Shown: positions 28,368 through 40,161, counted from the stretch's first letter. The stretch is 44,793 nucleotides of DNA from Deltaproteobacteria bacterium (GCA_016934455.1 JAFGSX010000266.1:1-44793); one strand, 5' to 3'. Notes: generated by a model from the sequence alone, not told the origin. Program-made: numbers and translations.

Positions 28368-29534
28368 CTACCGGCGATCGTGGATGCAGGTGGCGGTGAC
28401 CCAGGTCGGATCGTGGCTGTCGACGCCGGGGCCCGAGCCCAGCGTGGCGTTGTGCTGGGCCTCGACCGCGTCAGCCACGACCTCGCCGCTGCCCTCGTTC
28501 GCGTGCCACAGCACGACGGTGTCGGCGTCGGCGACGAACAGCGCGGTCGGCGGCGTAAAACTCCCCGTGTAGCGCGCGGTTCTAGAGATGCGCACCTCGT
28601 CGAGCAGGCCGGCGTAGAAGTAGGAGCGGTCGGCGGCGCCGGTGCCGGCGGTCAAGGGTCCGGTAAAATCGGACGGGCCGTTGTTGCAGGAGGCCTCATC
28701 CTGAAGCACGCCGTCGACGAAGACGCGCACCGTCGAGCCGTCGTAGGTGCCGGCGACGTGATGCCAGACGTTGGGCACGAAGGGGTAAGTGGCAAACGGC
28801 GCCTCGGCCGAGAGGTAGGTCCCGCCGTGGCCGACGAAGAAAGACGCTCCGCCGTAGTAGATAGCCAGCGCGTATCCGTCGTAGGTGCTGGCCGAGTGGT
28901 GCGAGATGATGCGCATGCGCGTGTTGGCGCCGATCGCGACCGGCGTGTTGACCCAGGCCTCGACGGTCAGCGCGCCCAGGCCATCGAACGCCGGATCGTC
29001 TCCGACCTCGAAGTAATCATCGTCTCCGTCGAAGGAGAGGGCGGGTTTGGCGCACGGGCCGCTGTCCGGGGCGCCGCGGTCCGCCGCACCGTCGTTCGCG
29101 CCGACGTCGCGCGTGAGATCCGCAATCGCGCTGTCGGCCGCGGCATCGAGGTCCGCCGCATCCGTCTGCCGGTCGCCGGGTGCGCCATCCGCCGGCGACT
29201 GGTCGGTCCGCGCCTGGTCGGTCCGCGCCTGGTCGGGATGCAGGTGGTCGCTCGCGATCCGGTCGGGCGAGTCGCGGTCCGGGTTGCCGCCGTCGCTCGC
29301 CGCGGCCGCGTCGCTCGCCGGCTCGTCCGGCCAGCAGATGCCGTCGCGGCAGACCTCGGTGCGCTTGCACTGCTGGTTGGAGGTGCAGACCGTGCGGCAG
29401 CGCTCCAGCACGCAGAGCTCGTCTTCGCGGCAGTCGCTGTTGGACTGGCACGGCGCGTTGGGATCGCGGCACGCGAGGGCGGCCAGCACCACCGCGGCGA
29501 GCGCCAGCGCCTGTCTCTGGAGAGCCGACGTCAC
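28368..29534 (-). CDS. Cys-rich lipoprotein with LamG/ConA-like domain
   Basis: GTG 29534 overlaps upstream stop (alternative ATG 29540); lipobox ALAC; 8-Cys module; acidic linker; ALSFDGDDDY, LTVEAWV, WHHVAGTYDG, GLLDEVRIS. Confidence 0.85.
   Translation of the reverse strand: MTSALQRQALALAAVVLAALACRDPNAPCQSNSDCREDELCVLERCRTVCTSNQQCKRTEVCRDGICWPDEPASDAAAASDGGNPDRDSPDRIASDHLHPDQARTDQARTDQSPADGAPGDRQTDAADLDAAADSAIADLTRDVGANDGAADRGAPDSGPCAKPALSFDGDDDYFEVGDDPAFDGLGALTVEAWVNTPVAIGANTRMRIISHHSASTYDGYALAIYYGGASFFVGHGGTYLSAEAPFATYPFVPNVWHHVAGTYDGSTVRVFVDGVLQDEASCNNGPSDFTGPLTAGTGAADRSYFYAGLLDEVRISRTARYTGSFTPPTALFVADADTVVLWHANEGSGEVVADAVEAQHNATLGSGPGVDSHDPTWVTATCIHDRR
29199..29236. repeat. 15-bp tandem repeat (about 2.5 copies; encodes DQART)
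   Basis: ctggtcggtccgcgc twice plus ctggtcgg, in the linker of the LamG lipoprotein. Confidence 0.8.
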
Positions 29535-30793
29535 TGGCATGCCGTCTCCCACGCGCCGAGGGAGACCGTCGGTTCGGGCACGACCAGCTTGCGCAACTTG
29601 ACGTTGTCGAACATGGCAGCGCTTTGAAACGTTACCAGGCCCGCCTGGGTGTCGCCGACCGCGAGGTTGCTGCCGTCGATCGTCAAGCCGTCGTCGAGAG
29701 TGGCGCTGACGTCGCTGCCGGTGAACCAAGCTGCAAGATGGTACCAACGCTGAAAGTGGACTGTGGTTTGAGTCGAGGCAACGACTCCTGCCGGATTGCC
29801 GTTGACGATGTGGCCGATCCGAAAAAGGTCTTCTTCTGACCACAGCGCCACGTTGTAGTAGGTGGCGCCGTAATCGGGCAGGCCGCTGGCTCGGATAAGC
29901 AATCCGGCCAGGGCGCTCTGTTCGCTAGCAGCCAGCAGCGCCACGTCTGCCTCCAGCATGCCGTCGGCGACCGCCGTGTCGGCGATCTGGCCGTAGCACG
30001 CATTGATATTTCCGGCGCGCAAGACGCGGCCGTGAGCTTCTGATTGGACGATCTGCCAGGCGCCTGATGGCCCGGTATCGAATTGCGGGTGGCCATTACT
30101 GTCTATGGCATGCCCTTCAAAATCATCGAAGAACCGGTAGACGTTGTGAAGATCGGTGGGCGCCGCGGTCGAACTGACCGAACCGACGTACAGGTAGTAA
30201 TCGTCGCTGCCGCCCGGGTAGCTCTCTGATGGCTGCAGCCGGAACCTCAACGCGATCCGGTCCGAGCCGAGGGCGATCAGCTCGCGATCGATCTCGGTCG
30301 CATTGCCCTCCAGCCACACGATACGCAGGTCGTCACCGTTCGGCATCAACGACCGCAGGAATAGATCGCTGGCCGCGGCTTCACGCAGGTCGAGCTCGAG
30401 CGTGTATTCGGCGGGTGCCGCCGAGATGATCAGCGGTGCGCGATAGGCAAACGCCGTGTCCCACCACGCCGGGTCGGGCGGAGCACAGGTATCCGCGACC
30501 GCGCCGTCAGTCGAAGTGCGATCGACCGGATTCGCGTCGGGACGGGCTCTATCGATTGCACCGGCGTCGACCAGGGCCTGGCAGAACCCGCTGCGACACT
30601 CCTCGGTGCCGCGGCAATCGACGTTGGAATTGCAGGCGAGGCGGCAGCGCTGCTCGATGCAGATCTCGTCCGGCCGGCAGTCGTTGCTCGACAAACAGGT
30701 GCCGCCTGGCGGCGGCTGGCAGGCGGTCAGCAATCCCGCGGCCGCGAGCGCGCTGCAAAACACCGACCAGGCGGCACGGCGCATCGCTCTCAT
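29531..30793 (-). CDS. Cys-rich lipoprotein with DUF2341-like and ConA/DUF1080-like domains (paralogue B)
   Basis: ATG 30793 overlaps upstream stop; lipobox LTAC; 8-Cys module; WW..F.YR, GDDLRIVW, YYLY, FFDDFE, WYHL, FDNV. Confidence 0.8.
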   Translation of the reverse strand: MRAMRRAAWSVFCSALAAAGLLTACQPPPGGTCLSSNDCRPDEICIEQRCRLACNSNVDCRGTEECRSGFCQALVDAGAIDRARPDANPVDRTSTDGAVADTCAPPDPAWWDTAFAYRAPLIISAAPAEYTLELDLREAAASDLFLRSLMPNGDDLRIVWLEGNATEIDRELIALGSDRIALRFRLQPSESYPGGSDDYYLYVGSVSSTAAPTDLHNVYRFFDDFEGHAIDSNGHPQFDTGPSGAWQIVQSEAHGRVLRAGNINACYGQIADTAVADGMLEADVALLAASEQSALAGLLIRASGLPDYGATYYNVALWSEEDLFRIGHIVNGNPAGVVASTQTTVHFQRWYHLAAWFTGSDVSATLDDGLTIDGSNLAVGDTQAGLVTFQSAAMFDNVKLRKLVVPEPTVSLGAWETACQ

Positions 30794-32199
30794 TGGCACC
30801 GCTCCTGCCACGCACCGAGCGCGACGGAGGGCTCGGGGTCCACCAGCATGCGCGCCATGACGTCGTCGACGGACACGTCGCTGAAAAAGCCGTTGATGCC
30901 GATCTCGCCGCACCCATTTTCTGCATGCAAATAGGTGGTCGAAGCCGTCCCGGAGACAGCGTTCAGCTTTGTGCCGACGGCGTGGCTGCGCAGCCGGTAC
31001 CACTGCTGTAAATTGATTTCGAGAGAGGTCGTCTCCAAAAAGCCTTGCCAGGCGCCATTGACGGTATGGCCGATACCCAGCCGGTTGCTAGCGTGTTGCA
31101 GCGTTGTTGAGTAATACGTAGCGTTGCCCAACAGGTTGCAGCCGCGAATCGAAAAATTGACACCGGCGATCGAGTTGTATGCGCTGTTGAATTTGACCCA
31201 CATCTCGAGCTGAACGTCGGTGAGCGTCAGTCCCGCCATCCTGATCGGGTTGCCGTCGTCGGCCGCGATGGTCAACACGTGGTTGCCGGAGCCCTCGACC
31301 TCCACCCGCCAGTGGGAGAGCGTCGCGGTGACAAACGCCGGGCTGCCGTCGCTGCCGACCGCCATTCCCTCGAAGTCCTCGAAAAAGAGGTAGACGTTTT
31401 TGCGGTTGTCCGCAGGCGAGTTGCCCGTGCTGGCGCCCGCTCCGACGTATAAAAAATAGCTTTCGCTGCCACCGGCATGGCCGCCGGGCTCCTGCAGGCG
31501 AAAATGAAGAGTCACCCGCGTGGCGCTGAACGCGAGCAGCGCGCGGTCGATCTCGCGGTTGGACGCGCCATCCCACCAGACGACGCGCAGATCGTCACCC
31601 GTGCCGAGCGAGCTCGGATCGAAGCGCGCCGCCTCGCTGTCGCTGGCGTCGAGCGCGAGCGTGTAGCTGGCGGGGGTGGCGCTGATCGCGATCTGCGCTC
31701 GCCACGGGTAGTTGTCGTTCCACCAGGGAGGCCCTGTCGGCGCGGCGCACGCATCGCCGCTGCCGGCATCGCTTTCACCGGCATCGCCATCGCCGGCATC
31801 GCCATCGCCGGCATCGCTTTCGCCCGAGTCGGATCCGGCATCGGCCGGACGGTCGGGCGTCATTCGATCGCCGGCGGCGGTGTCGGCGGGCTCGCCATCG
31901 CGCTGCAGCCAGTCCATCGCGGCCGCGTCAAGGCGCGGGGCATCGACCGGCTCCGCGTCGGGCCGGGCGCCGTCGATCGCACCGGCGTCGACTCGGGCCT
32001 GGCAGTAGCCGTCCAGGCAGATCTCGCCGACGCGGCACTGCTGGACCGAGTTGCAGGCGGTGCGGCAGAGCCCGGCGACGCAGATCTCGCCCTCGCGGCA
32101 GTCGCTCGACGTGGTGCAGACCGCGCTCGGCGGCCTCGGGCAGGAGGTCAGCGCAAAAAAAACGGCAAGCGCGGTACCGCCTGGGAGCAACCTCGACAT
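30790..32199 (-). CDS. Cys-rich lipoprotein with DUF2341-like and ConA/DUF1080-like domains (paralogue A)
   Basis: Lipobox LTSC; 8-Cys module; DAG linker; WWNDNYPWR, GDDLRVVW, FFEDFE, WYRL, VDDV; colinear with 29531-30793. Confidence 0.82.
   Translation of the reverse strand: MSRLLPGGTALAVFFALTSCPRPPSAVCTTSSDCREGEICVAGLCRTACNSVQQCRVGEICLDGYCQARVDAGAIDGARPDAEPVDAPRLDAAAMDWLQRDGEPADTAAGDRMTPDRPADAGSDSGESDAGDGDAGDGDAGESDAGSGDACAAPTGPPWWNDNYPWRAQIAISATPASYTLALDASDSEAARFDPSSLGTGDDLRVVWWDGASNREIDRALLAFSATRVTLHFRLQEPGGHAGGSESYFLYVGAGASTGNSPADNRKNVYLFFEDFEGMAVGSDGSPAFVTATLSHWRVEVEGSGNHVLTIAADDGNPIRMAGLTLTDVQLEMWVKFNSAYNSIAGVNFSIRGCNLLGNATYYSTTLQHASNRLGIGHTVNGAWQGFLETTSLEINLQQWYRLRSHAVGTKLNAVSGTASTTYLHAENGCGEIGINGFFSDVSVDDVMARMLVDPEPSVALGAWQERCQ
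31763..31822. repeat. 15-bp imperfect tandem repeat x4 (encodes ESDAG/DGDAG)
   Basis: ccggcatcgctttca, ccggcatcgccatcg x2, ccggcatcgctttcg. Confidence 0.8.
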
Positions 32200-32286
32200 G
32201 GCAATCCCCGTGGCCGGGATCGTAGCACAAGCCGGACCTGAGTGGTGCGGGTAGCCGGGCTCCCGTCCCCCCAGGGTCGTGGCGGT

Positions 32287-33414
32287 TCAGGGCTCTGCAA
32301 ACGGATCGGTCGTCAGCTTCTTGCGCACCGAGCCCGCGCAGATACCGCCGCGCGTCCGGCCGCCGCAGAAGGGCTGGTCCAGCCAGGCGTCCTCGCCGGC
32401 GAAACCCAAGGCCGCGAGATCCTCCACCAGCGGCGCAGCGGGCTCGCCGGCGTTGACCACCGGCGGGAGCAGCTCAAAGGCCGAGGGGTCGGCCACGCCG
32501 TCCGGTGAGCAATCCTCATCGAAGCACGGAATGTCCGAGAATTCGCAGTCGGCGACGGAGACGTAGCTGGCGTGCTTGTCCTCGGAGGCGTAGACCAGCC
32601 AGCGCGGGCCGCTCTCGCCATCGACAAACTCCATCTCCTGCAGTTCGTCGCCCGCCAAGAGCCGGTTGTGATCGAGCGGCGCTCCGTCGTGCGCCGCCGT
32701 GAAGGCAGCGCTGACCACGACGTCGCCGGGCGCCGTCAGCGCGACCAGACGCAGGGCGACGCGCTCCGTGTCGCCGTTGTGGGCCGAGATGCCAAGGCAG
32801 CTTCCGTAGTCGCGCGAGTAGCCGATCACGATCAGGGCGCGGACCTCGAGCGGCGCCAACGACGTCGGATAGATGTGCCCGATAGCGGCCACGACCGCCG
32901 CGGGATCGCCGAGCAGATCCTCGCCCTCGTCGAGGCGGAGCCGGGGACGCAGCAGCTCGAGAGCCATTTCCTCCCAGGCGTCGACGAGATCGTCGCCATC
33001 CGCGTCGGCGCAGACCTCACCCAGCGATTCGGGGCAACCGTCCGTGCGCGCGGGGACGTTGCTGCTCAACGCCAGGCGGCCGTCCGCCGCCAGCGACGTG
33101 GCAGCGGTCGGCGCGAACGGCGGGCCGGCTTCTGGACCCGCATCCGCGCCGGAGTCCGTACCCGAATCGACACCGGTATCCGCGGCTGCGTCGCGACCTG
33201 CATCCCGGTCTCCGCTCTGGCCGGCATCCCGGTCTCCGCTCTGGCCTGCATCCCGATCTCCGCTCTGGCCTGCATCCCGGTCTCCGCTCTGGCCTGCGTC
33301 GTGGGCTGCGTCCGGATCGCCGGGCGGAGTCGCGGCGGTCTGCCCCGGGCAGCCGCCGATTCCCAGCAGCCAGAGCAGCCCCCACGCTGGCCAGGTGCGG
33401 TGCACGGTCGTCAC
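32287..33414 (-). CDS. Hypothetical lipoprotein (Vps62/NPP1-like motifs)
   Basis: GTG overlaps ATPase stop; lipobox IGGC; DAGQSGDR repeats; DADGDDLVD; AHNGDTE and VYASEDKHASY. Confidence 0.72.
   Translation of the reverse strand: MTTVHRTWPAWGLLWLLGIGGCPGQTAATPPGDPDAAHDAGQSGDRDAGQSGDRDAGQSGDRDAGQSGDRDAGRDAAADTGVDSGTDSGADAGPEAGPPFAPTAATSLAADGRLALSSNVPARTDGCPESLGEVCADADGDDLVDAWEEMALELLRPRLRLDEGEDLLGDPAAVVAAIGHIYPTSLAPLEVRALIVIGYSRDYGSCLGISAHNGDTERVALRLVALTAPGDVVVSAAFTAAHDGAPLDHNRLLAGDELQEMEFVDGESGPRWLVYASEDKHASYVSVADCEFSDIPCFDEDCSPDGVADPSAFELLPPVVNAGEPAAPLVEDLAALGFAGEDAWLDQPFCGGRTRGGICAGSVRKKLTTDPFAEP
33197..33300. repeat. 24-bp tandem repeat x4 plus partial (encodes DAGQSGDR)
   Basis: cc(t/g)gcatcccg(g/a)tctccgctctgg at 33197, 33221, 33245 and 33269. 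Confidence 0.92.
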
Positions 33415-35432
33415 TCCCGGGGCAGGATGCGCAGCACCTCGCTCGGCACGGTCAGCCCCTCGGACAGCAGAAACTGCGAGTAGCGCGCCAGCGAGACGAA
33501 CGAGCCGTCCTGAGCAGCCTGCCTGAGCTGGGAGGCGTTGGCCTCCTGCGCGATCGCGTCGCGCACCGCGGCCGACACCACCAGCAGCTCGAACACGCCG
33601 ACGCGCCCCTTGAACCCCTCGCCGTTGCAGGCCTTGCAGCCGGCGCCCTTGTACAGCCTGGCCGCCGGGTCGAGCGGCACTCCGGCGTGATCGAGATTCT
33701 GCCGGATCACGTCGCTGTACTGGGTCTCGACGCGGCAGCTCGGGCAGATGCGGCGCACCAGCCGCTGGTTGATCACTCCCAGCAGCGAGCCCGCCAGCAC
33801 GAACGGCTCGATCTGCATCTCGCGCAGCCGCATCACCGCGGCCACGGAGTCGTTGGTGTGAAACGAGGTCAGCACCAGGTGTCCGGTCAGCGCGGCCGAG
33901 CAGGCCAGCTTGGCGGTGGCCGCGTCGCGCGTCTCGCCGACCAGGATGATGTCCGGATCCTGGCGCAGGAAGGTGCGCATGACGTCGGTGAAACCGAGCC
34001 CGATGGCCTCGTTGACCTGCACCTGGGTGATGCCCGGCACGTCGTACTCGATCGGATCTTCGATGGTGCAGATCGCCAGCTCGGGGTTGAACCGCTCCTT
34101 GATCGCGGCGTACAGCGTGGTGGTCTTGCCCGATCCGGTCGGGCCGGTCACCAGCACCAGGCCGTTGGGGCGGTAGAAGAGCTTGCGCACCACCTGGCTC
34201 ACCTTTTCGGCGAGCACCAGGCTCTGCAGGTTTTGCTCGAGCGCGCTGCTGTCCAGGATGCGCAGCGTCACCTTCTCGCCGAACTTGGCGTTGACCGTGG
34301 CCACGCGCAGGTCAAAGCTCTTTTGCCCGAGGTCGAGCGAGATGCGGCCGTCCTGCGGCAGCCGGCGCTCGGCGATGTTGAGCGAGGCCAGCACCTTGAT
34401 GCGCGACAGCAGCGGCGCGTGCAGCGCGAACGGGATGGTGCCGTCGCGAAAGGCCAGGCGGCCGTCCACCCGGTAGCGCACCACCACCCGGTTGCGATCG
34501 GGCTCGATGTGGATGTCCGAGGCACCGCGCTCGATGGCCTCGATCAGGATGGCGTTGAACAGCTCGACCACGTCCTGGCCGGCAGCGCCCTGCTTCAGCC
34601 GGGCCTCGTCCTCGCCGCCGCCGACGCCGTGAAAGACGATCTGCCGCGACAGCGCCGCCAGGTTGAGGCGTTGGGTCTGGGTCGGCGCCGGCCGCTCGGC
34701 CGCCTGCGTCAGGTGCTTGGCGATGAACTGGTCGTAGTCTGTCTCGCTGACCGCCAGCAGCTTGATCTCGATGCCGCGCAGCACGCGGCGCAGGTCGTCG
34801 ACGCCCAGCCGGTTGGACGGATCCGGGGTAGCCACGGTGGCGATGTTGCCGGCCATAGTGATCGGGACCATGCGGTGGCGCTTGATCAGGGCCGGCGGCA
34901 CCAGCTCGAGCAGCGCCGGATCGAAGGCGATCTCGCGCAGGCTGCCGAACTCGATGCCCTGGGTCTGGTTGTGGTCCTCGAGCCGTCTGGCCAGCACCTG
35001 GGAGATGGTCAGCGCGACCTGCGGCGCGGCGTTGACCAGCTTGTAGAAGACGTCGCGCGACAGCACCAGGAGCTGGGTCTCCTCCAGCGCGCGCACGCTG
35101 GCCGACCTCTTTTCGCCGGTGACCAGCGCCATCTCGCCAAAGGCCTGGCCGCGGCCCAGCTTGGCCAGCTCGTAGGTCAGGCCGAGCGCCTTGTCGGCGG
35201 TGAAGACCGACACCATGCCGCCGACGATGAGGTACATGGCATCGCCGACGTCGCCCGCCTGAAAAAGCAGCTCGCCCGGCTTGAGCGCGCGCCTGGTGAG
35301 CTGCGCCTCGAGCTGTTTCTTGAGCTGGGGCGCGAGCGGCTGGAAGATCGCGATGCTGTCCAGGATGCTAGAACTCTCGAGGGCGCCGGTGACCACCGGC
35401 TGGGGGATGCGGACCGTGGGGACATTGCTCAT
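33411..35432 (-). CDS. Cyclic-nucleotide-binding domain fused to PilB/GspE-family secretion ATPase
   Basis: ATG 35432 with GAGGT RBS; cNMP cassette FGEMALVTGEKRSASV; T2SSE_N-like domain; ASDIHIEP, RLPQDG, GPTGSGKTTT, TIEDPIE, RQDPD..VGE, GHLV..SFH, CPSC...CKAC. Confidence 0.92.
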   Translation of the reverse strand: MSNVPTVRIPQPVVTGALESSSILDSIAIFQPLAPQLKKQLEAQLTRRALKPGELLFQAGDVGDAMYLIVGGMVSVFTADKALGLTYELAKLGRGQAFGEMALVTGEKRSASVRALEETQLLVLSRDVFYKLVNAAPQVALTISQVLARRLEDHNQTQGIEFGSLREIAFDPALLELVPPALIKRHRMVPITMAGNIATVATPDPSNRLGVDDLRRVLRGIEIKLLAVSETDYDQFIAKHLTQAAERPAPTQTQRLNLAALSRQIVFHGVGGGEDEARLKQGAAGQDVVELFNAILIEAIERGASDIHIEPDRNRVVVRYRVDGRLAFRDGTIPFALHAPLLSRIKVLASLNIAERRLPQDGRISLDLGQKSFDLRVATVNAKFGEKVTLRILDSSALEQNLQSLVLAEKVSQVVRKLFYRPNGLVLVTGPTGSGKTTTLYAAIKERFNPELAICTIEDPIEYDVPGITQVQVNEAIGLGFTDVMRTFLRQDPDIILVGETRDAATAKLACSAALTGHLVLTSFHTNDSVAAVMRLREMQIEPFVLAGSLLGVINQRLVRRICPSCRVETQYSDVIRQNLDHAGVPLDPAARLYKGAGCKACNGEGFKGRVGVFELLVVSAAVRDAIAQEANASQLRQAAQDGSFVSLARYSQFLLSEGLTVPSEVLRILPRE

Positions 35433-35559
35433 GGCGACCTCGGTGGGCGCCGTGGATCGATCAGGCGCCAAACAGCGCAAGAAATAGCGCAAATGCCGGC
35501 GTAACGAACCGGTTTTCTGCGGATCCCGGATCGGCGTCGGTCACCTGACCGAGGAGCGA

Positions 35560-35586
35560 GCAACTAATCGCCGTGAACGCCGATAT
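35560..35586 (+). promoter_or_regulatory. Possible sigma28 (FliA/WhiG)-type promoter
   Basis: GCCGATAT at 35579-35586 (consensus GCCGATAA); the -35 position (GCAA at 35560-35563) is a poor match to TAAA. Confidence 0.3.
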
Positions 35587-35664
35587 ATTGTCATGGTATA
35601 AGAGGGGCGCGCAGAGAGCCTCATCGGTGTCCTTCACGCGCTGGGGGACACAAAAGGAGTCGCG

Positions 35665-36774
35665 ATGATTAGCAGCAGCGGGATTGACGGGCGCGGCGGT
35701 CTCCAGATCACCCAGATGCTCACCTCCCTAGGCCTGCCCACAAACCTGGGCGACCTGATGGGGACGCGCGTCGGTTCAGCCCAGACCCAGTTGCAGATCT
35801 ACATGCGGACCATGGGCAACGTGGCCAACTTCACGCCCCAGCAGCTCGACTCGTTCTTCGGGCGCAACCTGGCAGCGTCGCAGTCGGTACCCGCGCCCTA
35901 CGATGTGCTTGCCCAGAATCGCCAGCTCTACGGGTCGACCTACTACTCGTCGTGGAGCTTTGCCAACGCCACATCTCAGGGCACGATGTTCGCCAGCAGC
36001 CTTCAGTACGCGATCAACTCGGATCCGCGCATGCAGCAGCGGCTCAACGCGGTGGCCGGCGGCACGGTGCTGGCCGATGGCCGAGCCGACGGCTTTGTCA
36101 CGGTGCAGCGCTACACGCCCTACACCAACGTGGCTCCCTACACCCCCGCGATCGCCTCCAACTCTACGTCCTCTGGCATCTACGGCTCGCTGGCCCAGCT
36201 CGAGAACAACATCCTCAACTTGGCCGGCAGCATGGTCAATGGTGGAGCCAATTCTCCCAACTGGACTCTCAGCAACCCCAGTACCCAGCAGCTCGCGGCC
36301 GGCATGGGCATGACCCCGCCGTTCGCATTCGAGGATCTGCTCTACCTGATGATGATGCAGTACGGGCAGAACAAGGAAAAAGACATCATCGGCAAGATGA
36401 ACGAGCTTTCGCAAAACGCTGGCCAGGGCACCCAGCCGACGTCGGGATATTATCCGAACTACGCCGGCACCGGGCAGGTCGGCAACGCCCCCTACGGTGG
36501 ACTGGTCGGCGGGCCGGTCGGCGGCACCTACGCTGTCTCGCCGCAGGCTTTGACCCAGTACATGGGCGCTCAGTCCGCTGCCTCGAGCGGCGCCACCGGC
36601 GCCACCGGCAGCACGAGCGGCGCCTTCGGCGATACCAGCACTTCGTCGGATACCCTCAAGCAGATGCAGCTTCAGAAGCTGATGGAAGATCTCAAGAAGA
36701 TGTACGAGATGCTGTCCAACGTGATGAAGTCGATGCACGACATGCAGATGACGGCCATCCGCAACCTGAAGTAG
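35665..36774 (+). CDS. Hypothetical protein with T3SS needle/filament-like C-terminal helix
   Basis: Strong RBS AAAAGGAG; no Sec signal; G/S/T/Q/N/Y/M-rich; ends MQLQKLMEDLKKMYEMLSNVMKSMHDMQMTAIRNLK. Confidence 0.78.
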   Translation: MISSSGIDGRGGLQITQMLTSLGLPTNLGDLMGTRVGSAQTQLQIYMRTMGNVANFTPQQLDSFFGRNLAASQSVPAPYDVLAQNRQLYGSTYYSSWSFANATSQGTMFASSLQYAINSDPRMQQRLNAVAGGTVLADGRADGFVTVQRYTPYTNVAPYTPAIASNSTSSGIYGSLAQLENNILNLAGSMVNGGANSPNWTLSNPSTQQLAAGMGMTPPFAFEDLLYLMMMQYGQNKEKDIIGKMNELSQNAGQGTQPTSGYYPNYAGTGQVGNAPYGGLVGGPVGGTYAVSPQALTQYMGAQSAASSGATGATGSTSGAFGDTSTSSDTLKQMQLQKLMEDLKKMYEMLSNVMKSMHDMQMTAIRNLK

Positions 36775-36797
36775 CGCGCCCGTCGATCCAGGACTGC

Positions 36798-36830
36798 AAG
36801 ACGCCGCTCGCGAGAGCGGCGTCTTTGTTA
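36798..36830. terminator. Intrinsic terminator between convergent genes
   Basis: Perfect 12-bp stem aagacgccgctc / gagcggcgtctt with GCGA tetraloop, followed by a T-rich tail on +. Confidence 0.85.
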
Positions 36831-38357
36831 TGTGCGCACGTTGGATTGCCGCAGCCGCTCGGCCAGGGTCTTGGCGAACAGCCGGTAGATGCACAGCGCC
36901 GCGGTCTCGTGTCCGTACAGGTACTGGTCAAAGCGCTCGTGCGAGATGAACAGCGCGCGCACCGGCGTGGCGGCGACCACGCGCGCCGAGGTGGCGGCGT
37001 CGTCGACCAGCGACATCTCGCCGACGTAGGCGCCGGCGTGTAGCGTGGCCAGCGGGGTGGCGGCGCTGCCCTCGACCCGCAGCACCTGCACGTCGCCGGC
37101 CAGGATCACGGTCAGCCCGTCGCCGCGCACGCCCTGCTCGATGATGGTGGCGTTGCTGGTAAAGGTGACCTCCTGGCACATGCGATAGAGGTCCTTCATG
37201 TCGACCAGCGTCAGCTCGCCGAAGATCGGGATCGCCTTGAGCTGGGCGTAGGGATCGATGGCAGGCGCCTGCCCGCTCGCCCGCTCGGCAAAGGGATCGA
37301 TCAGCGACGAGAAGGGATCGCTGCTGGGCGTGGCTGCCGGCGGGATCTGGAAGGCCGCGGCGGCGGCCTGGATCGGCGCGGCCGCGGGCGCCGGCGCAGC
37401 TACCGCGTGGATGGCCGGCATCGCGGCGAAGGTGATCGGCCGGGGCGCGCTGGCCGGTGGCAGCACGGTACCGGTGATCACGGCGCCGGCAGGTGCGGCG
37501 GCGAGCGGTGCACCCTCGACGGCCGGCGGTGAGGCCTGCGCCGGCAGCACCCGCTGGTCGCCGACGCTGCGGCCGCCGAGCTGCTCCTGGATGCGCGCGC
37601 GCACCAGGTTGGCCTGATCGTAGCGGCCCAGCCCCTCGAGCAGGCGCGCCAGCCGCTGGTACAGGCCGGTGTGGTTGCGCGCGGCCGGGCACTGGCGCAC
37701 CGTGTCGATCACGATCTGCGCGGCCTGATCCATGTGGCCGTAGCGCTCGAGCAGATCGGCCAGCCGCTCGACCGCAGGCACGCGCTGCGCGTCGTCGATC
37801 GGCACCAGCCGCAGCATCTCGACCTCGCCGCGCATGTTGGCCGTCTGCTGGTAGACCTGGGCCGCCTGCCAGAACCGCTGCTGGCGCGCCAGGCACTCGG
37901 CCAGCGCATCCGATGGGCCCGACTGCTGGTGCAGCTCGAGCGCGGCGCCGAGCTGGCCCGCGCGTTCGAGCGCGGCCGCAGCGCGCACCAGGTCGCCGCT
38001 GCGCTGGTGGCAGCGGGCGGCCGAGGCGAAGTCCGAAGCCTGCTCGAAGCTGCGCGCCGCCTGGGCAAAGTCCTTGGCCAGCTCGAAGACGTGACCGGCC
38101 GAGGCAAAGTCGCGGGCCTGGGCGAACATGGCCGCCAGATGTTTCTGCGTCGACGACGAGGCGCTCTTGGCCTCGGCCAGCAGCTCCTTGGCGACCGTGG
38201 CGCCGGTCTCCTCGTACAGCCGCGCCGCGGCCTCGACCTCGCCGCGCGCGATGTGGCCGCGCAGGAACTGAACCACCTTGCTGGTGGCGACGAAGGCGCC
38301 GCTGTCGTCGGCGCCGTCGACGAACTCGAACTCCATCTCTCCCGCCCAGCGGGCCAT
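36828..38357 (-). CDS. TPR/alpha-solenoid protein with C-terminal cNMP-binding domain
   Basis: ATG 38357 with GGAGGT RBS; repeated AA.xFE.A.DF helical units; Pro/Ala linker; IPIFGEL...IIEQG...VGEMSLVD..TSARV. Confidence 0.85.
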   Translation of the reverse strand: MARWAGEMEFEFVDGADDSGAFVATSKVVQFLRGHIARGEVEAAARLYEETGATVAKELLAEAKSASSSTQKHLAAMFAQARDFASAGHVFELAKDFAQAARSFEQASDFASAARCHQRSGDLVRAAAALERAGQLGAALELHQQSGPSDALAECLARQQRFWQAAQVYQQTANMRGEVEMLRLVPIDDAQRVPAVERLADLLERYGHMDQAAQIVIDTVRQCPAARNHTGLYQRLARLLEGLGRYDQANLVRARIQEQLGGRSVGDQRVLPAQASPPAVEGAPLAAAPAGAVITGTVLPPASAPRPITFAAMPAIHAVAAPAPAAAPIQAAAAAFQIPPAATPSSDPFSSLIDPFAERASGQAPAIDPYAQLKAIPIFGELTLVDMKDLYRMCQEVTFTSNATIIEQGVRGDGLTVILAGDVQVLRVEGSAATPLATLHAGAYVGEMSLVDDAATSARVVAATPVRALFISHERFDQYLYGHETAALCIYRLFAKTLAERLRQSNVRT

Positions 38358-38391
38358 GGCCGACCTCCGTCCAAGCCTCGAACGAGCGCGC

Positions 38392-38420
38392 ATTATCCCC
38401 GGTCGCCCGGGCCGTGCCAA
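38392..38420 (-). promoter_or_regulatory. Putative promoter for the TPR-cNMP gene (sigma70- or sigma54-like)
   Basis: Minus strand TTGGCA-N17-GATAAT; the same bases also read TGGCACG-N4-GGGC (GG-N10-GC). Confidence 0.35.
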
Positions 38421-38517
38421 GCGCAGCCGCAGCGCGCTGACCGGTCGACGCCGTCGGCCCGCCCGGAGTATCATGACCGTAGGGCAATCCGACAAGGCGG
38501 CTCGACGGAGGCCAGCG

Positions 38518-40161
38518 ATGATCAAGAAGAGTGTCCCGGTGGCAGCGGCGCTGTTGGGCCTTGCCGTCCTGATTCGCTTCTCGGCCTGCAACTGCTCGCC
38601 CGGCGCCGCGGCCGGCTCCCCCTGCGAGACGGCTGCGGACTGCGCCGGCGACCTGGTGTGCGACCCGGCCACCCACACCTGCGCCGACCTGAGGTGCACC
38701 GGCCACGCCGACTGCGGACGCGGCGCCTACTGCAGCGGCGACCACTGCGTCGACAACCGGGTCGGCGGCCCGTGCCAGGTCGATCTCAACTGCGTGGCCG
38801 GCGAAACCTGCATCAACGGCACCTGCGGTCCGATCGCCGGCCCGGGCGGGAGCTGCGACAGCGCCGAGGATTGCACGGCGCCGCTGATCTGCAACCCGCA
38901 GACGGACACCTGCGTCGACAGCCTCGCCTGCACCACCCACGCGGACTGCGGTCCGGCCGCCCACTGCACGGCCGACGGCGTGTGCGAACGCAGCGTCACC
39001 GAGAGCCCGTGCGACGACGACACGCAGTGCCTGGCCAGCGATCAGTGCATCGGCGTGGTGTGCGTGCCGGACGAGTGCGAGGGGCAGGCTTTTTCGGCCG
39101 ATCGGGTGCCTGCCAACGTGATGATCGTGCTCGACCGGTCGAGCAGCATGACCCAGAACATCGGCTCCGACGGCAGCAAGTGGAACGTCGCGAAGGCCGC
39201 CATCGCGCAGATGCTGGCGGCGCACGGCTCCGAGATCCGGTTTGGCCTCAACCTGTTCCCGGGCACCAACCAGTCGTGCGAGGGCGCCCCCACCTGCCAG
39301 CCGAGCCCAAACAACAATCCCGCCGACTATGGCTTTGTCCCCGTCGACATCGGCGACAACACGGCGAGCACGATCGATAACTATCTCGCCAACACCGGCA
39401 CCTGCAACGCGCGCACCCCGGCGGCCGAGGATCTGCAGTTGCTGCGCAGCTACGACGGGCTCAAGGACACGACGCGAGGCAACTACATCCTGCTGGTGAC
39501 CGACGGCCAGGCCAACTGCAACGATCCGGTGCCCCAGGTCGAAGCGCTGTACGCTCAGGTTCCGTCGGTGCACACCTTCGTGGTCGGTTTCGGCAGCGGG
39601 GTCGATCGGAGCCAGTTGACGGCCATGGCCATCGCCGGCGGAACGGCGCGGCCCCAGACCCCCAACTACTACCAGGCCGACGACGCCGCATCGCTCAACG
39701 ACGCCTTTGCCGCCATCGCCGGCGCCGTGCTCGGCTGCGAGTACTCGCTGGTCGGCGTGGCCACGGATCCAGATCAACTGACCATCTACTTCAACGGCGT
39801 GCGCGTGCCCCGCGATCCCTCCGGCGTGACGGGCTGGGAATACTACCCGGCGACGGGGCGACTGACCTTCTCCGGCAATGCCTGCATCGCGCTGCAGCAC
39901 GGCGTGGTCACCGATCTCACCATCGTCTACGGTTGCCCGCTCGAGCAACCGGCCAAGCCGGACGGCGGCACGCCGCGCGATGCGGGCCCGGGGACCGATG
40001 CCAGCGGCAGCCGCTGCAATGACCGCTGCATTCACCCGTGCGGCAACTGGGCGTGCCTGCTGCCGGAAGGCGTGTGCGGCCCGTGCGAGGGCGACGGCGA
40101 CTGCTGCCCCAACTCGGTCTGCCTGATCGACGAGGGTATCTGCCTGGTGGTCGGCGGCTGA
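38518..40161 (+). CDS. Cys-rich vWA-domain lipoprotein (CglB-like adhesin architecture)
   Basis: GGAGG RBS; lipobox FSAC; about six C-x4-D/Q-C modules; MIDAS VLDRSSSM, RTP, LVTDG, TFVVGFG; Cys-rich tail. Confidence 0.82.
   Translation: MIKKSVPVAAALLGLAVLIRFSACNCSPGAAAGSPCETAADCAGDLVCDPATHTCADLRCTGHADCGRGAYCSGDHCVDNRVGGPCQVDLNCVAGETCINGTCGPIAGPGGSCDSAEDCTAPLICNPQTDTCVDSLACTTHADCGPAAHCTADGVCERSVTESPCDDDTQCLASDQCIGVVCVPDECEGQAFSADRVPANVMIVLDRSSSMTQNIGSDGSKWNVAKAAIAQMLAAHGSEIRFGLNLFPGTNQSCEGAPTCQPSPNNNPADYGFVPVDIGDNTASTIDNYLANTGTCNARTPAAEDLQLLRSYDGLKDTTRGNYILLVTDGQANCNDPVPQVEALYAQVPSVHTFVVGFGSGVDRSQLTAMAIAGGTARPQTPNYYQADDAASLNDAFAAIAGAVLGCEYSLVGVATDPDQLTIYFNGVRVPRDPSGVTGWEYYPATGRLTFSGNACIALQHGVVTDLTIVYGCPLEQPAKPDGGTPRDAGPGTDASGSRCNDRCIHPCGNWACLLPEGVCGPCEGDGDCCPNSVCLIDEGICLVVGG

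Follow-up and report, generated by a model that had tools for sequence, protein, structure and literature searches.

The window analyzed here (i.e., the whole stretch of 44,793 nucleotides) contains three adjacent genes between positions 33411 and 38357. The first (33411..35432, - strand) encodes a 673-aa PilB/GspE-like ATPase with a cNMP-N1E-T2SSE architecture and all catalytic motifs intact. It is divergent from a central gene (35665..36774, + strand; 369 aa), with 232 bp between them (35433..35664), and the central gene converges on a gene for a 509-aa TPR-like/cNMP protein (36828..38357, - strand) at a distance of 53 bp. A palindromic hairpin identified by pattern matching (36798..36825) lies between the convergent stop codons and may be a bidirectional terminator. 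ORF calls and Pfam searches reproduced the coordinates, domains, and relative orientations of the three genes as given in an initial annotation of this DNA. They also agreed with its remark that no pilC/gspF, secretin, or sct gene was recognized: none was found among the 26 large window ORFs scanned, a set that leaves out small ORFs such as pilins.

The PilB/GspE-type ATPase and its TPR partner

The ATPase gene can be read from the ATG or from an upstream TTG at position 35492, which gives 693 aa. Its T2SSE core (33429..34574, - strand; PF00437, E = 3.2e-113) scored 378.6 bits against a gathering cutoff of 24.9 and is thus a member of that family. The core is preceded by an N1E/MshEN_C-type domain (34710..34958, - strand; PF05157 MshEN, E = 1.2e-12) and, at the N terminus, by a cNMP-binding domain of the CRP/PKA type (35031..35291, - strand; PF00027, E = 8.9e-21; 74.1 bits versus a cutoff of 27.5) with a canonical phosphate-binding cassette, FGEMALVTGEKRSA. 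In CAP and PKA, the key residues of such cassettes are G-E...R-[ST]-A. In an alignment of 31 cNMP-PilB/GspE fusion proteins (A4), the cassette residues G99, E100, R109, and A111 were invariant (31/31), as were Walker A (GPTGSGKTT; G430-K436, T438, and T439), the Asp box (EDPxEY; E458, D459, P460, E462, and Y463), Walker B (GExRD; G499, E500, R502, and D503), the His-box H (H525), and the CxxC...CxxC motif (C563, C566, C599, and C602). The window ATPase scored below the equivalog cutoffs for both GspE (TIGR02533; 483.1 versus 630.25 bits) and PilB (TIGR02538; 460.9 versus 675.65 bits).

Homology between the fusion protein and the PilB of the same genome begins at PilB residue 61, and the cNMP domain occupies the place of MshEN_N. 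A relaxed form of the 24-residue MshEN motif, defined according to the methods of PMC5013675 with T counted among the hydrophobic residues, was present in 0 of the 31 fusion proteins; the PilB of the same genome, encoded on contig C134 and used as a positive control, matched it at residue 40. Judged from these alignments, the c-di-GMP-binding MshEN_N bundle of the ATPase has been replaced by a canonical domain with predicted cAMP/cGMP binding.

Fusions of this class form at least 29 database clusters; among the 60 related genomes searched, 10 carried them, at a total of 11 loci. Neither the window ORFs scanned nor 10 of the 11 related loci included a platform, pilin, or secretin gene next to the fusion gene (the Pfam scans around fusion loci omitted 4 of 70 and 22 of 51 ORFs, which were in distant flanks or were short with atypical codon GC). 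The exception was a locus (G026:C169) at which the fusion copy lies beside pilB- and pilT-like genes. The earlier view of the cNMP-PilB/GspE fusion as unusual holds up. The genome to which the window belongs carries T4aP, T2SS, and Tad sets, with three platform-protein loci on contigs other than that of the window.

The TPR-cNMP protein is also assigned to PF00027 by its HMM match (E = 3.4e-15; 56.2 bits), and this cNMP-type domain lies at its C terminus (36918..37169, - strand). The cassette, GEMSLVDDAATSA, is non-canonical; the position of the phosphate-binding Arg is occupied by Thr in 6 of 6 TPR-cNMP orthologues, in which the cassette reads P/A-T-S-A (alignment A2). The TPR call for the window protein itself was weak (TPR_7, 18.3 bits, under the cutoff), and orthologues matched TPR models clearly (e.g., TPR_7 at E = 1.9e-9 in G001).

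In four related genomes, the TPR-cNMP gene immediately precedes the cNMP-PilB gene on the same strand, with gaps of 56 bp (G001, L074), 27 bp (G002, L076), 10 bp (G034, L077), and 16 bp (G037, L078). No homologue of the central gene was present within ~8 kb of the pair in any of these genomes, and at all 11 fusion loci retrieved, tblastn with the central protein gave no match. Adjacency in a further genome (G003) could not be assessed because the two genes fall on contig ends that face each other. In five genomes at a greater distance, a TPR homologue and the fusion gene were not linked, which counts against the explanation preferred below. By gene order, the TPR-like/cNMP protein and then the PilB/GspE-family hexameric ATPase are encoded by a conserved same-strand operon of two genes. 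A complex prediction for ATPase residues 1-290 (A4) with the TPR-cNMP protein (A2) scored 0.31 against a mark of 0.32, a value that speaks neither for nor against an interaction.

The cNMP gene pair and the intervening gene

Only one other carrier of the three-gene layout was detected, a near-identical metagenome contig (L116). Its flanking proteins are 90% and 88% identical to those of the window, its central protein is 73% identical, and its counterpart of the 232-bp divergent region shares 87% identity with that of the window, including conserved blocks. The dN/dS ratio of the central gene relative to L116 was 0.29; the central gene is therefore under purifying selection. A strong ribosome-binding site, AAAAGGAG, precedes its ATG. 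Within positions 35300-36950, there were 0 sites resembling a sigma-70-like consensus promoter, and one terminator-like site was found versus 1.0 expected from shuffles.

The initial annotation had proposed a cyclic-nucleotide-gated module of all three genes. The co-occurrence survey argues against that proposal: the trio recurred on this one close-relative contig only, and the pair, whose linkage held in all four assessable, more distant genomes, stood in each of them without the central gene. The data favor the alternative offered in the same annotation, namely, that the central gene was inserted independently between two cNMP genes that were linked. The comparisons indicate that ~1.4 kb with one opposite-strand gene was inserted between the pair in the genus of the window, uncoupling their transcription. 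The divergent region is a product of this insertion and must now hold promoters for both the ATPase gene and the central gene. The L116 layout, the intergenic identity, and the purifying selection leave room for local co-regulation.

The central protein, its family, and type III loci

No Pfam or NCBIfam family matched the central protein at E ≤ 0.01. This protein lacks cysteine residues and a Sec signal sequence and contains Gly/Ser-rich linkers. Its features include a C-terminal needle-type helix (36640..36771, + strand; residues 326-369, ending in ...MYEMLSNVMKSMHDMQMTAIRNLK) and a second conserved helix (36328..36420, + strand; residues 222-252, FEDLLYLMMMQYGQNKEKDIIGKMNEL), in which E223 and D224 are invariant in the family alignment (A1). 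The AF2 model, based on 29 sequences, was poor (mean pLDDT, 54.5); its best-modelled part was the helix at residues 222-252 (block pLDDT, 75-85), and it also contained a helix at residues 328-366.

The family of this protein comprises 928 representatives at E ≤ 1e-3, and every named match is a "hypothetical protein." Members are 350 to 790 aa long, with an N-terminal domain of ~200 aa and two Gly-rich linkers. Matches were present in 20 of 61 related genomes; the genome of the window has 7 at E ≤ 1e-5 and 8 at E ≤ 0.01, and copies numbered 11 in G001, 12 in G003, and 6 in G002. A profile search with A1, using narrow patterns, returned 14 loci, all from close relatives and none from named cultured species. 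Most paralogues, of which there are many per genome, lie outside the secretion locus described below, and some adjoin unrelated genes (e.g., those for a Ser/Thr kinase, dnaX, and gamma-glutamyltranspeptidase). At 10 of the 21 family loci examined, no type III gene was found nearby in Pfam scans that omitted 26 of 70 and 26 of 69 ORFs (in distant flanks, or short with atypical codon GC), a result that counts against the preferred explanation.

Alone, the central protein matched PF09392 at E = 0.1 (13.2-14.4 bits; gathering cutoff, 29.4) over residues 326-365. Across 16 family C-terminal tails, PF09392 was the commonest match (7/16; best E = 3.3e-6), followed by the flagellar rod C-terminal model Flg_bbr_C (5/16), and full-length members from two genomes (G044 and G008) matched PF09392 at E = 1.2e-4. 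No family member reached the gathering score, the best values being 22.6 bits for a full-length member and 26-27 bits in genome scans. With hhalign, the family helix aligned end to end with small needle-like proteins at the C termini (97.4% probability; E = 1.3e-11), one of these comparators itself scoring 29.2 bits on PF09392 alone and 29.6 bits with neighboring in-frame matches (cutoff, 29.4). Together with the family members beside sctU, these matches confirm the needle/filament-type helix that had been recognized in the initial annotation. On profile evidence, the last ~40 residues of the central protein and the C-terminal helix of needle-type (SctF-like) proteins are homologous, and this homology assigns the protein to the type III axial-protein superfamily.

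SctF needle proteins are small helix-turn-helix proteins of about 70-90 aa. The central protein does not have the size of an SctF protein, with its 369 aa, large N-terminal domain, and linkers. The locus and chaperone context of SctF is absent around the window copy and present for paralogues or orthologues in eight genomes. The EspA/SctA model (PF03433) gave no match to the central protein even at E ≤ 10. All TM scores were <0.5 in an ESM Atlas structure search; needle_F, EspA, or LcrV occurred in 11-12% of members of some neighbor clusters (EspA, 12%), which we treat as a lead only. Among PDB sequences, the full-length family profile found nothing below E = 0.36; in a separate PDB profile search, the top match was a needle-protein fragment (7y6c_F; E = 0.084).

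A family member lies next to sctU in eight genomes (contig C322 of the genome of the window, and G032, G057, G044, G050, G036, G013, and G029), and in the last two and G036 it is the sole copy found. For six flanking TPR proteins, the best NCBIfam match was the SycD/LcrH chaperone model TIGR02552 (E = 1e-23 to 1e-26), with scores of 83-93 bits under a cutoff of 104.8. Gene neighborhoods place the home of the family in non-flagellar type III loci, where it follows sctU directly and is flanked by SycD/LcrH-like TPR chaperone genes; by the same sequence comparisons, the inserted central gene is a dispersed paralogue of this large unannotated family.

The genome of the window encodes SctN (613 bits; cutoff, 604.75) and SctU (366 bits; cutoff, 358), and because both exceed non-flagellar equivalog cutoffs, it has a genuine non-flagellar system. 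SctQ, R, S, and T, O-like and P-like, SctD-like, and J genes are also present, as are a 169-aa needle-like gene, a CdsG/SycD-like TPR neighbor, and a weak SctI-like gene. The sctV gene (FHIPEP) was not found in this genome, which is 82% complete; this counts against the preferred explanation. Comparing the distribution of FHIPEP with that of the family gave no information, since 55 of the 61 genomes have FHIPEP. Only two secretin genes were found, on contigs C350 and C181, the former adjoining GspE/GspF, and none was on the type III contigs (C334, C322, and C452).

Identification of the central protein as a flagellar axial protein was considered and rejected. Seven proteins of the G001 flagellar cluster (MotA, FliM, FliN, FliP, FlhB, FlhA, and FlhF) were used as tblastn queries, and the genome of the window had no match for MotA, FliM, or FlhA. 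The queries matched type III contigs C334 and C322 and, elsewhere, two weak FlhF-like sequences (28-30% identity; C172 and C309).

Interpretation and comparison with known systems

The three genes are real but do not form one machine, and the insertion between linked cNMP genes is supported. Taken as a whole, the explanation that we consider probable is that a conserved cNMP pair was split by a type III-family paralogue, with the pair acting as an in-trans motor and the central protein as a type III substrate. The ATPase would be a cyclic-mononucleotide-gated motor or motor-like regulator that acts in trans on a type IV filament machine whose genes lie elsewhere. By analogy with SgmX and PilB in Myxococcus, the TPR partner may be the adaptor or localizer of the ATPase. 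The central protein would be exported as a middle-class type III substrate (i.e., of the tip, filament, or hydrophilic translocator type), its conserved terminal helix may dock on the needle-like protein or assemble together with it, and the central protein would have no functional tie to the two cNMP genes.

There is little chance that the ATPase and the needle-helix protein instead form a lineage-specific module, co-regulated from a shared divergent control region and coupling a type IV-type motor to a type III substrate. Such a module would fit the layout of L116, the conserved blocks of the 87% identical divergent region, and the dN/dS of 0.29, and it would echo the Kil Tad pilus and type III apparatus described as acting together in Myxococcus (PMC12075869). 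However, flanking proteins with 88-90% identity explain the L116 layout by descent alone, the pair occurs without the insert in four more distant genomes, other paralogues sit beside unrelated genes, and no consensus promoter was found in the region searched. Only slightly better odds attach to the view that the central gene encodes a Gly/Ser-rich protein, either secreted or structural, that has no relation to type III secretion and whose needle likeness is generic to an amphipathic C-terminal helix; a harpin-like or other generic Gly-rich secreted protein is likewise a low-odds identity. The match of the central protein to PF09392 at E = 0.1 was accompanied by equally weak, unrelated CCD and IATP matches, the PDB profile matches included leucine zippers at E of about 0.3-0.5, and the ESM Atlas scores were <0.9, all points in favor of this view. 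It would not account for members lying directly after sctU between SycD/LcrH-like chaperone genes in eight genomes, for the two commonest Pfam families of the tails both being type III axial-protein C termini, for the end-anchored hhalign match, or for a needle-protein fragment as the top PDB match.

A larger, though still low, probability is given to the idea that cNMP-PilB powers no filament and is a cNMP-responsive signaling ATPase with the TPR protein as its output partner. The isolation of the gene from platform, pilin, and secretin genes in the window and at 10 of 11 related loci is consistent with this idea, as are the scores under both equivalog cutoffs and the signaling role claimed for PilB in Myxococcus exopolysaccharide control (PMC5544727). 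The catalytic and zinc-binding motifs of assembly ATPases are nevertheless all invariant, a copy in G026 adjoins pilB- and pilT-like genes, and the genome of the window offers three platform-protein loci to serve.

With the probable explanation of a split cNMP pair, the three-gene secretion module as proposed falls away, and two by-products remain. One is that PilB/GspE-type ATPases recur with a predicted cAMP/cGMP receptor in place of the c-di-GMP receptor and, in one clade, with a TPR protein dedicated to them; control of a PilB-type motor directly by a cyclic mononucleotide was absent from the PilB-regulation review and the literature searched. The other is a large unannotated needle-helix family inside Myxococcota type III loci that are called needleless in current papers (PMC3459982 and PMC12075869). 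We tentatively raise the possibility, to which we give somewhat less than even weight, that a needle is not lacking in uncultured Myxococcota whose type III system is "Myxo-type" and apparently secretin-less, and that these bacteria encode a small SctF-like protein together with the expanded needle-helix family. The 350- to 790-aa family of 928 representatives would then have its origin in the sctU/sctV interval, with SycD/LcrH-like chaperone genes on either side. If so, the dispersed paralogues, among them the one that split the cNMP-PilB operon in the window, would be interchangeable tip or filament subunits with varied surfaces (e.g., for different prey).

The window ATPase shares with PilB, MshE, and GspE the N1E-N2E-CTE architecture, Walker A and B, the Asp and His boxes, and the tetracysteine motif, and, as in those with MshEN, its second-messenger sensor is at the extreme N terminus. 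In contrast to MshEN ATPases, the fusions have a CRP-type cNMP domain in place of the MshEN_N motif (0/31), and the window ATPase differs from PilB and GspE in scoring below their equivalog cutoffs and in having no platform or pilin genes alongside. The literature searched contained no cNMP domain linked to PilB or GspE, and "cNMP" and "cyclic nucleotide" have 0 occurrences in a 2024 PilB-regulation review. The MshEN partner domains given in the main text of PMC5013675 are REC, HD-GYP, CheA, CheX, cyclase, and kinase domains, with cNMP absent from that text.

SgmX is a TPR-domain activator of PilB in Myxococcus xanthus (PMC7519303 and PMC7668184). Like SgmX, the window TPR protein appears to be a helical-repeat protein dedicated to a PilB-type ATPase; unlike SgmX, it has a cNMP-type C-terminal domain without the phosphate-binding Arg and is encoded together with the ATPase in one operon. 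The comparison concerns only how the two proteins may work and is drawn from descriptions and not from sequence.

Among SctF and the related filament/tip proteins EspA (SctA) and LcrV, the central family resembles needle-like proteins by homology of its C-terminal helix, and it occurs in type III loci beside class II-type TPR chaperone genes; the lack of cysteine and of a Sec signal in the central protein is a further likeness. It differs from SctF in the length of its members (350-790 aa), in scores under the Pfam cutoff, and in its many paralogues, which are mostly outside the secretion locus. The accounts of the "Myxo," or needleless, T3SS* of Myxococcales in PMC3459982 and PMC12075869 report the absence of needle, tip, and translocon and list the substrates as unknown. 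The genome of the window resembles these systems in having core Sct genes and no secretin on its type III contigs, and it differs from them in carrying a 169-aa needle-like gene and a large needle-helix family.

Three linked genes and their order in related genomes

The window constitutes contig C442 of a 613-contig genome (82% complete; ~68% G+C), and the homologous proteins were labeled at source as Myxococcota, Deltaproteobacteria, or Pseudomonadota MAGs. ORF and Pfam evidence bore out the three genes of the initial annotation, with their domains, at the following positions: a cNMP-PilB/GspE fusion ATPase (33411-35432, minus strand; 673 aa; cNMP_binding, E 8.9e-21; MshEN/N1E, E 1.2e-12; T2SSE, E 3.2e-113), a central gene (35665-36774, plus strand; 369 aa; no Pfam or NCBIfam family at E ≤ 0.01), and a TPR-cNMP gene (36828-38357, minus strand; 509 aa; C-terminal cNMP_binding, E 3.4e-15). 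The helical-repeat N terminus of the TPR-cNMP protein was weakly TPR in the window copy and clearly TPR in its orthologues. Codon-position GC supported all three genes, and a hairpin lies between the convergent stop codons (chance alone predicts one such site). A 1035-aa ORF overlapping the TPR-cNMP gene (36928-40035, minus strand) was rejected as a high-GC artefact on the basis of its composition.

A Pfam scan of the 23 further window ORFs detected polysaccharide, sulfatase, transporter, glucanotransferase, PPDK-like, and LamG genes and no platform protein, secretin, or sct gene, in agreement with the initial annotation, which had recognized none. Within 28368-33414, a tandem array of LamG/DUF7107-type paralogues (28368-29924, 29531-31003, and 30790-32286) had a higher copy number than in L116, a metagenome contig from a very close relative; it is followed by a lipoprotein-like ORF (32287-33414, minus strand) that contains four DAGQSGDR repeats and has no counterpart in L116.

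The three genes had been proposed to form a cyclic-nucleotide-gated secretion or appendage module, with an insertion between two linked cNMP genes as the alternative. Using the first 161 residues of the ATPase as a query against 60 related genomes, we found full-length fusion genes (open frames of 660 to 740 aa) at 11 loci in 10 genomes and retrieved up to 10 kb on either side. In G001, G002, G034, and G037, the gene immediately upstream of the fusion gene, in the same orientation, is the TPR-cNMP orthologue (gaps of 56, 27, 10, and 16 bp, respectively); in G003, the two genes are at facing contig ends, where adjacency is not assessable. None of the 11 fusion loci was matched by the central protein in tblastn. 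In the window, 1395 bp separate the TPR-cNMP and ATPase genes, and the central gene occupies this interval on the opposite strand; this layout recurred only in L116 (identity to the window: ATPase, 90%; TPR-cNMP, 88%; neighboring PPDK-like gene, 83%). Since the insert was absent from four genomes of four different GTDB families and present only in the window's own lineage, a single insertion is the more parsimonious account, the alternative being precise loss on repeated occasions. More distant fusion-bearing genomes (G057, G009, G018, G033, and G040) had a TPR homologue (27-33% identity) on another contig, and no TPR homologue was found in the fusion-bearing G026. This distribution leaves the three-gene module unsupported and favors the insertion; on gene-order comparison, linkage of the pair characterizes the clade, and the trio is an accident of descent at the genus level. 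The insertion would have uncoupled the two cNMP genes transcriptionally. The dN/dS ratio relative to L116 was 0.29 for the central gene versus 0.15 and 0.18 for the flanking genes, indicating that the central gene is functional and is evolving faster.

The ATPase and its TPR-cNMP partner

The ATPase retains every catalytic and zinc-site motif and scores under both the PilB and the GspE equivalog cutoffs. Its alignment to the canonical PilB of its own genome (C134) starts only at PilB residue 61, i.e., past the c-di-GMP-binding MshEN_N motif. The relaxed MshEN motif, as defined in PMC5013675, was present in this PilB and in 0/31 fusion proteins, which have a cNMP domain in place of MshEN_N; the G, E, R, and A of the cNMP cassette were invariant in 31/31. 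Binding of cAMP or cGMP to this N-terminal domain would gate the hexameric ATPase or its docking, and the TPR protein could act as an adaptor of the ATPase, by analogy with SgmX. The partner has Thr at the phosphate-binding Arg position of its cNMP-type domain (6/6 orthologues); this domain may be a poor binder or may mediate an interaction.

Neither the window nor 10 of the 11 related loci had a platform, pilin, or secretin gene beside the fusion gene. The sole context tying the fusion to pilus motors was contig C169 of G026 (L081:1160-10240), where genes for a GAF-GGDEF diguanylate cyclase, an MshEN-containing PilB (871 aa), and a PilT-like protein, along with another T2SSE segment, adjoin a second copy of the fusion. 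Within the window's own genome, the ATPase could serve three platform-protein loci (T2SS-like, C350; T4aP-like, C134; Tad-like, C280). This genome also encodes a fourth long PilB/GspE-type ATPase (C58:921-2069, on a 3.5-kb contig; 700-aa open frame) with a different, unassigned N-terminal extension, which may be another orphan motor.

Five same-strand genes separated by short gaps in G037 (L078:1518-7740) encode a HAMP-adenylate/guanylate cyclase, a bactofilin, TPR-cNMP, cNMP-PilB, and a 297-aa protein without a family, the first two preceding the pair with gaps of 62 and 85 bp. Bactofilins place PilB and PilT at Myxococcus poles. This gene set is consistent with a cyclic-nucleotide circuit that acts locally and has a cytoskeletal anchor, and the five-gene run is possibly a complete cyclic-nucleotide circuit for the ATPase.

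The central gene family and type III secretion loci

At E ≤ 0.01, the central gene was one of eight matches in its own genome, including three further full-length copies with 39-46% identity (C582, C322, and C14) and more divergent ones on C538 and C171. Matches numbered 11 in G001 and 12 in G003, and at least one was present in 20/61 genomes. An exhaustive profile search recovered 928 cluster representatives at E ≤ 1e-3, of which 373 reached ≤1e-10 and 86 reached ≤1e-30; no hit carried a source name other than "hypothetical protein." Two members in tandem on one metagenome contig (L117:189-1863), the first truncated by the contig end, imply that the family also expanded by local duplication.

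An alignment of 27 of 34 database hits (including the query) plus two distant members revealed four parts: a conserved stretch of ~200 residues at the N terminus, a Gly-rich linker that varies among members, a conserved helix (…FEDLLFLMMMKYA.KKEKEI..KMNEL), and another Gly-rich linker leading into a C-terminal helix that is almost invariant, SDTLKQMQMQKLMEDLKKMYEMLSNVMKSMHDMQMAAVRNLR. Cysteine and a Sec-type signal were absent from the central protein.

The central protein alone matched the type III needle family PF09392 marginally (E 0.1). Across 61 genomes, PF09392 hit, at E 2-3e-5, exactly the C termini of three members (in G044, G050, and G008) found independently with the central protein; two of these also had E 1.2e-4 in whole-library Pfam scans. 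Among 16 C-terminal tails assembled (three added by hand, the other 13 drawn from a list of 25 distinct ones), PF09392 was the commonest family (7/16; best E 3.3e-6), followed by a flagellar rod/hook C-terminal model (5/16). Against the PDB, the best match of the tail profile, weak alone, was a 43-residue needle-protein fragment (7y6c_F; E 0.084), with leucine zippers next (E 0.3-0.5). ESM Atlas neighbors, all scoring <0.9 and thus leads only, were Myxococcota hypotheticals and, lower in the list, clusters partly with EspA, needle_F, or LcrV. The phylum also has small needle-like proteins (138-172 aa); one (169 aa) is encoded on C452, where its neighbors are a sigma factor, a TPR gene of CdsG/SycD-like type, and a weak SctI-like gene. 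With the C452 sequence excluded, 15 family tails were built into a profile and aligned with one made from five of the small needle-like proteins; the match (97.4% probability; E 1.3e-11) spanned the final 41 columns from end to end. Together with the PF09392 matches, this result upholds the needle/filament-type helix originally assigned to the central protein.

In G032 and G057, comparison of family-hit with FHIPEP-hit coordinates showed sctV and a family member 1-2 kb apart, and annotation of these loci gave the order FliK/HpaP-like, SctQ, FliO, SctR, SctS, (SctT), SctU, small ORFs, TPR, family member, TPR, SctV. The SctU-TPR-member-TPR order recurred in G044 and G050, and SctU-(TPR)-member in G036, G013, and G029, each with this sole detected copy. 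Six TPR neighbors had the SycD/LcrH type III chaperone model as their best hit (E 1e-23 to 1e-26; whole profile covered), at 83-93 bits, below the 104.8 cutoff. Of 21 family loci examined, 8 were sctU adjacent, 3 adjoined a SycD/LcrH-like TPR gene only (G034:C10, G028, and G021), and 10 had neither, including the window copy and its own-genome paralogues on C582, C14, C538, and C171.

The window's own genome encodes a non-flagellar type III system split over at least four contigs (C334, C322, C452 [L114:4671-10009], and C457:17905-18438), comprising SctD-like, N, O, P, Q, R, S, and T; SctU; and SctJ. C334 (L110:4281-13548) carries SctD-like, SctN, YscO-like, HpaP-like, SctQ, FliO, and SctR, S, and T genes, and C322 (L109:162-6365) carries SctU, a central-gene paralogue, and a TPR gene. 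SctN (613 bits; cutoff, 604.75) and SctU (366 bits; cutoff, 358) exceeded the non-flagellar equivalog cutoffs. No sctV was found in this 82% complete genome, and the two secretin genes found are on C350 (beside GspE/GspF) and C181, not on type III contigs. A same-family genome, G001, has a flagellar-type cluster on its C86 (L105:1921-19901; MotA, MotB, FliM, FliN, FliO, FliP, FlhB, FlhA, FlhF, MinD-like, and FliA-like sigma factor), with NikA/MobC and relaxase genes ~4 kb beyond; when seven proteins of this cluster were searched by tblastn against the window's own genome, MotA, FliM, and FlhA had no match.

The best reading of these sequence data is that the central protein is a middle substrate of type III export, served by a chaperone and of the tip, filament, or hydrophilic-translocator kind. 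It would be exported by a type III system, docking via its terminal helix, and it lies outside SctF in the Pfam sense.

Comparison with known systems

A literature search linking cNMP or cyclic nucleotide-binding to PilB, GspE, or T2SSE returned nothing relevant; in PMC2853384, both terms occur in unrelated passages. Passages of a 2024 review of PilB regulation present cAMP solely as a transcriptional input via Vfr and c-di-GMP as acting via MshEN (PMC11656802), and the MshEN partner domains listed in section 12 of PMC5013675 do not include cNMP. On comparative sequence evidence, the fusion is of interest as a putative PilB/GspE motor variant that responds to cyclic mononucleotides and has a dedicated partner, and the central gene as a member of a large unnamed needle-helix family tied to Myxococcota type III loci. 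Myxococcales type III systems are described, in passages of PMC3459982 and PMC12075869, as having no needle, tip, translocon, or secretin and as having unknown effectors. The scattered type III set of the window's own genome, with its needle-like gene on C452, bears on this view of the published systems as lacking SctF.
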